DNA from: a virus
Virus record (IMG/VR): IMGVR_UViG_3300031951_000010
Strand: one strand, 5' to 3'
Length of the DNA stretch: 64,000 bases
The notes below the pieces were generated by a model, which was not told where the DNA came from, ran no database searches, and was given only the letters and a program-made list of their open reading frames with translations. The translations under genes were made by a program, and so were the position numbers. Below, piece by piece: positions 8,369-62,946 of this stretch (the first letter of the stretch is position 1; each line of letters starts with the position of its first letter).

Positions 8369-8805
8369 TCTTCGTCACCAATGCGCCATGCGTTTTTGCG
8401 GGGAATGTAATAACCAGTGTCATAGATGTATCCCACATAATCCATTATCCTGAAATCTACTACTGGGCAAGTATCTTTGGGATATTTATCAAGGGGCTGC
8501 CACTCAGAATCAAAAGGTTTAATAAAAGCATCTTTTAAATCACTGCAATTGTTTTTTTCCGATTCCATGAGATCATCAGATGAAATATTCTTACACTCAT
8601 CCAAAATAGTATCAGCAATCTCACAACAATACTGAATCAAATTTTCAGGAATATTATCAAATTGGTCTAATGGCAAATCATAACGACACGAATCAGCACT
8701 TTCGTGAACATTGCCATTGTGCAAAGCAGCAAGCATTGGAGCCATCAATGTAGCAACTAACTGCGCACGATTATAATCATAATCACTACCAATCATCTCA
8801 TTCAT
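8311..8805 (-). CDS. Hypothetical protein
   Basis: 164 aa, first gene of the minus-strand operon. Confidence 0.65.
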   Translation of the reverse strand: MNEMIGSDYDYNRAQLVATLMAPMLAALHNGNVHESADSCRYDLPLDQFDNIPENLIQYCCEIADTILDECKNISSDDLMESEKNNCSDLKDAFIKPFDSEWQPLDKYPKDTCPVVDFRIMDYVGYIYDTGYYIPRKNAWRIGDEEWSDTWMPRVGTSWRWCGC

Positions 8806-8852
8806 ATAACTCTTCTACGATCATAAAACAAAAACATCACCAACACATAAAT

Positions 8853-36097: not shown

Positions 36098-36137
36098 AAA
36101 TCCCCTGTTTTCTTTCTTCTGATCGGATATATAAATC

Positions 36138-55996: not shown

Positions 55997-56065
55997 ATGA
56001 CTCGCCGATATCTTTCACTGCTAGGACTCTTATCGCTTTCTCTTGAGAAAGCGGCGATTAGCTGA
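55997..56065 (+). CDS. Leu-rich attenuator leader peptide MTRRYLSLLGLLSLSLEKAAIS
   Basis: AAGGA SD; 7 Leu codons (6 CTN); 3' 20 nt complementary to the terminator 5' arm. Confidence 0.82.
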   Translation: MTRRYLSLLGLLSLSLEKAAIS

Positions 56066-56086
56066 TAGATTTTGCGATCAGTGTTT

Positions 56087-56127
56087 AATCCCCGATTTCT
56101 CTCAAGGAGTCGGGGATTTTTGTTTTT
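56087..56127 (+). terminator. Attenuator terminator upstream of tRNA-Leu genes
   Basis: AATCCCCGA...TCGGGGATT followed by TTTGTTTTT. Confidence 0.88.
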
Positions 56128-56138
56128 GCGTTTCACAT

Positions 56139-58412: not shown

Positions 58413-58457
58413 CTAAAAAATCCCCTGTTTTTCAATAGGGGATTTGATATATCAATT

Positions 58458-58594
58458 GTGCCAAGAAGCACTTGAAGTGCAGTCTACGGATATGCCTTAT
58501 TAGGGCATGTGATTACTGCGTAGGAAGGACAGGGTGTAATGAAGTACGGTCGCGACGAAAAGTTACATCGGGTTAAAATCCCAACTTGGCACCA
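58458..58594 (+). ncRNA. 137-nt tRNA-like RNA
   Basis: Starts at the promoter-predicted +1; GTGCCAAG/CTTGGCAC terminal stem, ends ...CCA; GCAC-N5-GTGC-AGT arm; GGG-TTAAAAT-CCC T-like arm. Confidence 0.65.
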
Positions 58595-58616
58595 AATTGA
58601 AAAATGAGAATCTAAT

Positions 58617-58917
58617 CGGGGCGTGGCGAAATGGCAGACGCAGGGGACTTATAAAATGAGCACTTGTTTGTGAAAGCTGCAAGTGAATGCAATCAAATTC
58701 GGTGAAACCTTAACAGTTAGGCTGATGGCAATACCGAGCCAAGCTAACTCAAAACAGAGTTAGAAGGTGTAGAGACTAGATGGTTGCTGCCTAAGTCGAA
58801 AGATATGGCAAAGGTATAGTCCAGACCACAAAATCCTTTGGGATCGTAGTGAAAGCTATAGTGGTATGAAAATCCCTTAGTAGCAATACTGTGTGGGTTC
58901 GAGTCCCACCGCCCCGA
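58617..58917 (+). tRNA. tRNA-Leu(TAA) with group I intron
   Basis: Exons 58617-58650 and 58869-58917 rebuild loop CTT|AAAA; CCA not encoded. Confidence 0.9.
58651..58868 (+). ncRNA. Group I intron (trnL/IC3-like), 218 nt, no ORF
   Basis: P AAATTCGGTGAAAC, Q AATACCGAGC, R GTGTAGAGACTAGATGG, S AAGGTATAGTCC; terminal G; inserted after U34. Confidence 0.9.
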
Positions 58918-58946
58918 TTAGGTTATATATTGATTACTAATGCGCT

Positions 58947-59465
58947 TTGTGTGCTTTTAGTATAAGAATGTTTGTGTCACGTTTGCAAAAATATACCCTA
59001 GAGGAGATAAAAGAAATAATATCTAAATCAAAATCTTATGCTGAAGTAATTCGATCTATTGGTTTAATTCCTGCTGGTGGAAATTACAAAACATTGCAAA
59101 GTTTTGTACATGAATACCGAATTGATACTTCGCATTTTCTGGGCTCAGCTTGGGGGCGAGGAAACCAATTGGATTATCTCCACAATAGCAATAGAAAATC
59201 ATTAGAAGATGTTTTTTCGGGAAAAGTAGCTTATAAATCAAGCCATAAATTAAGGCTTCGGCTGATTAAAGAAGGATATTTTGAGCATAAATGCTATAAA
59301 TGTGGACTAAAAGAGTGGCAAGGACACGAAATACCCTTGGAATTAGAGCATATAAATGGAGATCATTGTGATAACAGTCTCGAAAACCTCATTATTCTTT
59401 GCCCCAACTGTCATGCTCAAACAGAAACTTATGCTGGTAAAAACAAAAAAAGACGATTAGGTTAA
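58947..59465 (+). CDS. Free-standing HNH endonuclease
   Basis: CYKC...LELEHINGDHCDNSLENL..LCPNCH. Confidence 0.9.
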   Translation: MCAFSIRMFVSRLQKYTLEEIKEIISKSKSYAEVIRSIGLIPAGGNYKTLQSFVHEYRIDTSHFLGSAWGRGNQLDYLHNSNRKSLEDVFSGKVAYKSSHKLRLRLIKEGYFEHKCYKCGLKEWQGHEIPLELEHINGDHCDNSLENLIILCPNCHAQTETYAGKNKKRRLG

Positions 59466-59842: not shown

Positions 59843-59910
59843 TATTTTCACATATGCATGACTATGTGAAAAATCCCCTGTTTTCTCTTTCTTGATCGGA
59901 TATATAAATC

Positions 59911-62276: not shown

Positions 62277-62310
62277 GCAGGTGTAGCTCAGTGGTAGAGC
62301 GCCCGCCGCG
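62277..62310 (+). pseudogene. Orphan tRNA 5' half
   Basis: GCAGGTG-TA-GCTC-AGTGGTA-GAGC; acceptor pairs 6/7 with CTCCTGC at 62869-62875. Confidence 0.65.
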
Positions 62311-62347
62311 AAGGTTGATGGTTGCAATATCGATAAATAGATTATGT

Positions 62348-62764
62348 ATGGCAATAACAAAATACAAAGGAGCCGTCGGGCTAACTAATGTAATGGCCTG
62401 TCTTGTCAATCAAAAAGCAAAAATCTTTGTTCCAATAGACGAAGACTGTCAATATGACCTGGTGGTAGATTATCAAAATTATCTTTACAGAGTGCAAGTT
62501 AAATATGCTGAGGCAAAAAATGGCAAGATCGTTGTAAAGACGCGCTCAACGAATAACTATTGTGAAATTCGTTATACTAAAGATCATTTTGACGTGATTG
62601 CTGTTTGGGACAATGTTGGCAAAAAAGCATATTTTATTTCATCGAATTTAATCACAGAAGGAATGACGGAAATGACCTTGAGATTAGATGCACCAAAAAA
62701 CAATCAAACTAAAAACATAAGATTGGCTCGTAATTATGAGCAATTTAATGCTGCGGTCGCATAG
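62348..62764 (+). CDS. PD-(D/E)XK endonuclease (I-Ssp6803I-like)
   Basis: TK.KG...P......YDLVVD....YRVQVK...Y....FD..AV; 3' end overlaps tRNA-Thr. Confidence 0.85.
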   Translation: MAITKYKGAVGLTNVMACLVNQKAKIFVPIDEDCQYDLVVDYQNYLYRVQVKYAEAKNGKIVVKTRSTNNYCEIRYTKDHFDVIAVWDNVGKKAYFISSNLITEGMTEMTLRLDAPKNNQTKNIRLARNYEQFNAAVA

Positions 62765-62832
62765 TGGTCGATTGCACCTCTCTTGTAAAGAGGAACTCCA
62801 CACCGTGGGTTCGAATCCCACCCGTAGCTCCA
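62750..62832 (+). tRNA. tRNA-Thr(TGT)
   Basis: GCTGCGG/CCGTAGC, loop CTTGTAA, CCA; 11-nt variable region. Confidence 0.88.
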
Positions 62833-62845
62833 TTTTTCGCACATA

Positions 62846-62876
62846 TGTGTCAGGGGTTCGAATCCCCTCTCCTGCT
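62846..62876 (+). pseudogene. Orphan tRNA 3' half
   Basis: TGTC-AGGGG-TTCGAAT-CCCCT-CTCCTGC-T. Confidence 0.65.
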
Positions 62877-62946
62877 TTGAGTTGAGTGATGATATCCGAT
62901 CATAAAAAATCCCCCTTTTTCTCAATAGTGATCGGATATATAAAGT

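Follow-up and report, generated by a model that had tools for sequence, protein, structure and literature searches.

A tRNA-shaped, probably non-decoding RNA gene in the tRNA cluster of a freshwater jumbo phage, a candidate counterpart of T4 species 1 RNA

Introduction

What does a large phage encode in a stretch between a protein-coding gene and a tRNA gene that begins with a promoter, folds like a tRNA and is too long to be one? The question is raised by a locus on 64,000 nt of viral DNA (IMG/VR record IMGVR_UViG_3300031951_000010), the whole of which is called the window in the following. A preliminary description of the locus had seen in it a tRNA-mimic RNA with its own promoter, a candidate decoy or Y-RNA-like molecule.

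T4 has provided examples of small stable RNAs from a phage tRNA cluster since the 1970s: at the end of this cluster it encodes two stable and abundant RNAs, RNA C (rnaC, 139 nt) and RNA D (rnaD, 119 nt), to which no function has been assigned (PMC3014915, PMC9697503).

Genomic setting

The source of the window is a large (jumbo) freshwater phage of about 421 kb, and the window sequence also forms part of a metagenome contig of 420,993 bp and of dozens of shorter ones. The window contains rIIA and rIIB, HNH endonucleases, an anaerobic ribonucleotide reductase activase-like gene and many tRNA genes, and its proteins are at most about 30-38% identical to any phage protein of INPHARED or IMG/VR. 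The features of the locus are collected in Table 1. The candidate gene is located 21 nt upstream of tRNA-Leu(UAA) without a terminator between the two, and a search of the neighbouring proteins for a functional clue to the RNA found none.

Mobile elements have left visible marks on the tRNA genes of this phage. The intron in tRNA-Leu(UAA) is devoid of an open reading frame and inserted between U34 and A35, the site known from trnL of cyanobacteria and plastids. A free-standing HNH gene (58968-59465) lies 3' of tRNA-Leu(UAA) and has suffered a 61-nt internal deletion in one metagenome copy (L105), and at 62277-62876 a tRNA is split, with a PD-(D/E)XK (PF11645) endonuclease gene and an intact tRNA-Thr lying between its 5' half and its 3' half.

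Table 1. Coordinates (in the window) of the candidate RNA gene, its parts and its neighbours
Feature	Position	Strand	Evidence or remark
Upstream gene, 133 aa	58011-58412	+	stop codon 58410-58412
Promoter cassette of the RNA gene	58416-58457	+	A-run and ATCCCC box, -10-like GATATA at 58446-58451, 6-nt spacer
tRNA-shaped RNA gene, 137 nt (predicted)	58458-58594	+	minimum free energy, strand specificity, identical in ten independent metagenome contigs
Terminal acceptor-like stem, 5' strand GTGCCAAG	58458-58465	+	pairs with 58585-58592, probability at least 0.98
D-like hairpin GCAC-UUGAA-GUGC, followed by AGU (motif to 58483)	58468-58480	+	pair probability 0.9
Long two-part arm	58483-58524	+	upper helix 0.87-1.0, lower helix about 0.45
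Variable-arm-like hairpin, 8-bp stem GGTGTAAT/GTTACATC, 21-nt loop	58533-58569	+	pair probability at least 0.97
T-like hairpin GGG-UUAAAAU-CCC, 3 bp	58570-58582	+	pair probability 0.91
Terminal stem, 3' strand CTTGGCAC (58585-58592), and unpaired CA (58593-58594)	58585-58594	+	
A/U-rich 21-nt spacer between RNA gene and tRNA-Leu(UAA)	58595-58615	+	no terminator
tRNA-Leu(UAA), next gene of the same predicted transcription unit	58616-58918	+	exons 58616-58650 and 58869-58918
Group I intron in tRNA-Leu(UAA), 218 nt	58651-58868	+	Rfam RF00028, 58.2 bits; ARAGORN with introns

A promoter cassette predicted to set the 5' end

A cassette of roughly 40 nt consisting of an A-run, the box ATCCCC, a T-run and then GATCGGATATA or a variant thereof occurs in about 25 copies in the window, exclusively on the plus strand and spread over 22846-63905 (e.g. 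36098-36137 and 59871-59910). It can be written as AAATCCCC...GATATA, and in 18 of 27 copies an ATG starts exactly 6 nt after the hexamer. A gap of 6 nt is the spacing expected from a -10 element to +1, so that most genes of this phage look leaderless and equipped with a promoter each, and +1, judged from the spacing alone, is predicted to coincide with the ATG. A Shine-Dalgarno sequence is seen in only a few genes (e.g. 19773 and 21484).

In the cassette copy ahead of the candidate gene, the base that follows 6 nt after the hexamer is not an ATG but G58458, which opens the terminal stem of the RNA, just as the preliminary description had claimed of the promoter rule. The chance that an exact complement to an 8-mer at +1 is present 60-200 nt further on is estimated at about 0.002. 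A second copy of the cassette, at 62907, also precedes non-coding sequence. The upstream half of the copy at 58416-58457 contains a 9-bp hairpin (58418-58426 with 58437-58445), which could double as terminator of the upstream 133-aa gene.

Fold of the 137-nt RNA

The 5' end of the 137-nt RNA is the predicted +1, and its 3' end is a putative one that may shift by a few nucleotides either way. The minimum free energy of the 137 nt is -45.6 kcal/mol compared with -33.3 +/- 3.0 kcal/mol in dinucleotide shuffles (z -4.05), of which none (0/200) was as stable; the reverse complement reaches -31.7 kcal/mol (z -1.15), a weaker fold that is accounted for by four G-U pairs in the plus-strand structure. 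Windows of 137 nt that fold as well are rare in the phage (6 of 926). All 36 predicted pairs form without a mismatch, the helices have probabilities of 0.87-1.0 except for the lower helix of the long arm (about 0.45), and the domain remains closed once downstream sequence is added to the folding. An open reading frame of note overlapping the RNA was not found, and in antisense complementarity to the remaining window sequence the RNA does not exceed shuffled controls.

The stems and hairpins drawn in the preliminary description are all present in the sequence, including the long central arm and the long extra arm. The terminal stem consists of eight Watson-Crick pairs out of eight. In the long arm, the lower helix UCUACG/CGUAGG occupies the position of a tRNA anticodon stem and is followed by an asymmetric internal loop, on top of which stands the upper helix AUAUGCC/GGCAUGU with the 7-nt loop UUAUUAG (58490-58510). 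The extra arm is the variable-arm-like hairpin with its 8 bp and 21-nt loop, which directly abuts the T-like hairpin, and AA stands between the latter and the terminal stem. Within the T-like loop the equivalents of U54, U55 and A58 and the closing G-C pair are present, with A at the position of C56, and the D-like loop has U at the positions of G18/G19. The large loop of the variable-arm-like hairpin contains an 8-nt palindrome, GUCGCGAC (58549-58556), through which the RNA could dimerize by loop-loop contact.

With respect to the 3' end, the RNA had been described as ending in CCA, and these letters do stand at 58592-58594; C58592, however, pairs with G58458 and only CA is left unpaired. As the first C is paired and CA alone overhangs, the CCA of the 137-nt RNA does not constitute a canonical NCCA end. 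The ordinary tRNA genes of the phage encode 7 bp, a discriminator and CCA. In tRNA-Leu(UAA) the CCA is not encoded.

Comparison with known RNA families

A confident match to an Rfam family had been named as one finding that would refute the proposal, and it was sought without success: nothing in Rfam matched the locus, neither with the whole window at the gathering threshold nor with 8.5 kb or 153 nt alone at E<=10. At the same E<=10, the models for tRNA (RF00005), tRNA-Sec (RF01852), tmRNA (RF00023) and YrlA (RF02553) gave no match at the locus, and the same is true of the T-box and other riboswitches. ARAGORN at default settings, with or without introns, calls no tRNA there, and its relaxed-threshold, tmRNA and mitochondrial modes return low-threshold artefacts only. 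When every single internal segment was deleted in silico, none of the resulting 4120 variants was called a tRNA at the ARAGORN default. Standard annotation, which relies on tRNA finders and Rfam, thus misses such genes entirely.

The combination of a 7-bp acceptor, a discriminator and CCA that is typical of tRNAs is replaced by an 8-bp stem with CA alone unpaired, and no anticodon stem of 5 bp topped by a 7-nt loop was found at the usual distance from the elbow, even after intron removal. Two anticodon-like heptamers in the RNA, AUGUGAU (His-like) and GUGUAAU (Tyr-like), lack flanking stems and were rejected as chance occurrences. The geometry of tRNA-Sec and allo-tRNAs is partly reproduced, with the 8-bp acceptor and a long variable-like arm present, but the anticodon arm is not a normal one.

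Among the established families, tmRNA and tRNA-Sec/allo-tRNAs share with the candidate the tRNA-like ends and, in the case of bacterial tRNA-Sec, the 8-bp acceptor, whereas the 137-nt RNA has neither a tag open reading frame nor G3-U70, a UCA anticodon or a match to any of the models. The statement that the RNA is too long for a tRNA and has no tag open reading frame holds, as at 137 nt it contains no suitable reading frame and the ARAGORN default finds no tmRNA at the locus. YrlA RNAs likewise are small RNAs with a tRNA-like module, some of them phage-encoded; yet the paired ends of a YrlA RNA make up its Ro/Rsr-binding helix and enclose the tRNA-like part, whereas here they form the acceptor-like stem. 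The proposed likeness to Y RNAs is not supported, the YrlA model being silent at E<=10 and the terminal stem lacking a bulged Ro-binding helix. The term tRNA mimic draws on the layout and on a D arm shared with a phage tRNA-like gene and not on a family match, as the Rfam tRNA model sees nothing at E<=10.

Signs of tRNA ancestry

The 16-nt motif GCAC-N5-GTGC-AGT of the D-like hairpin occurs twice in the 64-kb window, where no occurrence is expected. On the minus strand (about 1570-1492) the motif recurs as D arm in a tRNA-Met(CAU)-like gene, where it has the same place relative to the acceptor strand, in agreement with the preliminary description, which had noticed the arm in an atypical Met RNA. 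When the candidate is aligned on this gene, its helix CUACG/CGUAG falls on the anticodon-stem position, and its other elements follow one another as in a class II tRNA. The Met-like gene itself is unusual: its D arm is a miniature one (4 bp, 5-nt loop), it is missed by ARAGORN and its best Rfam match is tRNA-Sec with 17 bits. As a -10-like TTATAT is situated 6 nt before its first base, this gene may also start at its first nucleotide.

The class II tRNAs of the phage (Leu, Ser and Tyr) and the Met-like gene have in common with the 137-nt RNA a terminal stem, a D-like hairpin, a helix at the anticodon position and variable-arm-like and T-like hairpins in tRNA order, and the phage's own tRNAs also show an A/U-rich trailer after the letters ...CCA. 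They differ from the candidate in that the latter has a length of 137 nt, its helix at the place of the anticodon stem encloses a loop of 30 nt with a further hairpin inside, its variable arm comprises 8 bp and a 21-nt loop, CA alone is unpaired at its end and tRNA models do not detect it. The D-arm motif, the helix at the anticodon position and the class II order of elements suggest an origin from one of the phage's own tRNAs, and the 137-nt RNA may be described, as far as can be read from the sequence, as a phage class II tRNA with an expanded anticodon loop and variable arm. Whether tRNA enzymes would recognize the RNA is uncertain, given the T-like stem of only 3 bp, the missing C56 and the lack of a canonical NCCA end.

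Comparison with T4 species 1 RNA

No Rfam family was found for rnaC or rnaD. Homologues of rnaC from five Tevenvirinae genera or species (T4 locus L082:2909-3047; loci L088-L091) were aligned and turned into a covariance model, R2; homologues of the T4 gene are present in Kanagawavirus, Moonvirus and Karamvirus. The consensus fold across the five Tevenvirinae has 46 pairs, 19 of which show compensatory changes. It is composed of an acceptor-like stem with a conserved tandem U-U, a long central arm, a linker of 9-10 nt and a 10-bp hairpin, which precedes by one nucleotide a canonical T arm stacked on the acceptor. The 5' CGGUUCGAGGA, the loop UUGACG, the hairpin loop GCGUCAAC and the canonical T arm are conserved.

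The two RNAs resemble each other in size (137 versus 139 nt) and in their place in a phage tRNA cluster beside a tRNA gene. Their layout is also alike, with a terminal stem, a long central arm with internal loops, a single-stranded 9-10-nt linker, a long hairpin that abuts the T hairpin and finally the 3' terminal strand. Neither is able to decode and neither has an Rfam family. On the other hand, no similarity exists in sequence or covariance model: R2 gave no plus-strand match to 58458-58594 at E<=10 with filters off, and a model of the 137-nt RNA gave none to T4. The best match of R2 in the window (55997-56137; 19 bits, rough E 6e-4) is a hairpin-rich leader ahead of Leu tRNA genes, which lacks the T arm and is probably spurious.

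Peculiar to rnaC are the canonical 5-bp T arm with the loop UUCGAAU, stacked on a 7-position acceptor with the tandem U-U, and the absence of a D hairpin, while the candidate combines a 3-bp T-like stem (loop UUAAAAU) and a 2-nt bulge with a perfect 8-bp stem and a D-like hairpin. Furthermore, rnaC is cut out of a longer precursor, whereas the candidate is predicted to start at +1. Judged by these comparisons, the resemblance is one of kind and layout and not of family.

Relatives and variation

The 137-nt RNA is identical in ten independent metagenome contigs, but as the contigs match the window at 99.7-100% identity over their whole length, the ten copies show no covariation and carry no information on selection. 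Contigs of the phage stem from samples ERZ27248008 and ERZ4200892 and from JGI 3300032093, 3300005527 and 3300008120. One diverged relative was found (L100; also on a longer contig, of 1292 bp, from JGI sample 3300059473), in which the protein upstream is 82% identical; L100 breaks off at nt 70 of the RNA. In these 70 nt a single change has occurred, C58506 to T, which converts a G-C pair of the upper helix to G-U, as compared with three changes in the 42-nt promoter cassette and a much more diverged 5' half of the upstream gene. The low divergence of nt 1-70 is compatible with constraint; it is not statistically significant and a recombination boundary explains it equally well.

Beyond this relative, blastn with the RNA against the INPHARED phages returned chance matches only, exact and degenerate patterns of the RNA found nothing in IMG/VR, and two patterns found nothing in the GTDB genomes. 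A pattern of the promoter cassette had three single matches in IMG/VR, which were taken as chance. A covariance model of the single sequence (R1) did not match any of about 90 loci. Relatives of the upstream gene, metagenomic or viral, accounted for 79 of them, and the others were one locus from a huge phage, the tRNA region of T4 and the rnaC loci.

A stable, non-decoding RNA as the preferred reading

Cumulatively, the observations argue for the reading, to which we would assign a probability of roughly 0.55, that the locus is the gene for a small, stable and non-decoding tRNA-shaped RNA, an orphan counterpart of T4 species 1 RNA (RNA C). Transcription would begin at G58458, the base that opens the terminal stem, where the cassette places it, and the 137-nt RNA would be the first product of a unit that runs on into tRNA-Leu(UAA), the HNH gene, a small open reading frame and tRNA-Leu(CAA). 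As the 5' end would then be a primary triphosphate end, no cut by RNase P should be needed on this side. The 3' side could be freed either by RNase P at 58616, the 5' end of tRNA-Leu, or by RNase E in the A/U-rich spacer, whereupon exonucleases would trim back to the terminal stem. Release and stabilization are thus probably accomplished by tRNA-processing enzymes of the host, and the closed, tRNA-like shape is expected to render the RNA stable.

Decoding by such an RNA is not to be expected, as some 12 pairs and an internal loop separate the loop of the long arm from the junction, which puts the tip of this arm too far from the elbow, and as the 3' end does not keep the tRNA register. The tRNA-like top half and elbow might rather, and this is speculative, occupy a tRNA-binding protein of host or phage as a mimic, with an enzyme of tRNA processing or modification or a defence nuclease directed at tRNAs as conceivable partners.

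A broader proposal, which we consider quite unlikely as it stands, is that the RNA belongs to an unnamed wide class of phage 'oversized tRNA mimics', primary transcripts whose triphosphate end is at the same time the end of an acceptor-like stem. Members of such a class would act as decoy or inhibitor of a tRNA-directed host factor, be it an anticodon nuclease, another tRNA-sensing defence or a processing enzyme, with the anticodon-like loop U-U-A-U-U-A-G displayed on the long arm, open to binding but unusable.

Alternative explanations

The rival that survives best, although we regard it as doubtful, is a decayed or rearranged tRNA pseudogene, now only a structured 5' leader of the tRNA-Leu(UAA) precursor, which RNase P would cut off, which would then be degraded and which would do nothing in trans. 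The location between a promoter and tRNA-Leu(UAA) is what would be expected of such a leader, the tRNA genes of this phage have been hit by mobile elements (the group I intron and the split tRNA at 62277-62876), and the failure of tRNA models to detect the RNA along with its degenerate T arm and 3' end fits a gene in decay. A decaying gene is, however, not expected to retain all 36 pairs intact and to have acquired added arms that are perfect helices; moreover, the promoter register sets +1 on the first paired base, and nt 1-70 are kept in the relative with one pair-preserving change.

It is very unlikely that the structure is merely a chance fold in an intergenic spacer without function. The prediction is indeed made from a single sequence and six other windows of the phage fold as well, but for this explanation the z-score of -4.05, the strand asymmetry, the 8-bp closure at the predicted +1 with its chance of about 0.002, the shared D-arm motif and the situation in a tRNA cluster would all have to coincide.

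A shade less credible still is a cis-acting leader which controls transcription or processing of the unit of tRNA-Leu(UAA), intron and HNH gene. Such a role would suit the position at the 5' end of the unit, and leader or attenuator arrangements upstream of other tRNA genes of the window had been proposed in the preliminary description. Against it, the locus has no terminator and no alternative pairing with downstream sequence, the fold is closed and self-contained, and no T-box or other riboswitch model matches.

That the locus is a decoding tRNA with a short intron or insertion, or one of the Sec/allo-tRNA type with an 8-bp acceptor, can hardly be maintained: ARAGORN at an 80% threshold does propose a tRNA-Tyr(GUA) with a 46-nt intron and a long variable region, and the 8-bp terminal stem and the long variable-arm-like hairpin would agree with the second type, but the same relaxed run yields obviously spurious calls, the anticodon stem proposed for Tyr is mismatched at two of five pairs with a pair probability of 0, no self-splicing intron type of 46 nt is known from bacteria, the ARAGORN default with introns finds nothing and passes none of the 4120 deletion variants, and the Rfam models for tRNA and tRNA-Sec are silent at E<=10, with no UCA anticodon loop present.

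Significance

The 137-nt RNA is read as a new orphan among the stable, tRNA-shaped RNAs that phages encode in their tRNA clusters and that do not decode. If so, a jumbo phage unrelated to T4 would have arrived independently, starting from its own stock of tRNAs, at an RNA of this size and layout, which argues that the layout does something useful for large phages. With respect to applicability, the RNA comes with a promoter of its own and its 5' end is predicted to be the primary one, so that it could be expressed alone and used in pull-downs of its partners.

In an unrelated huge phage, a 156-kb contig (JGI 3300033074) carries 12 tRNA-Leu genes with five anticodons within 10.5 kb (L095:2619-4939 and 8765-8849). 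This array adjoins genes for a class I aminoacyl-tRNA synthetase, an RF-1-like protein and a formyltransferase.
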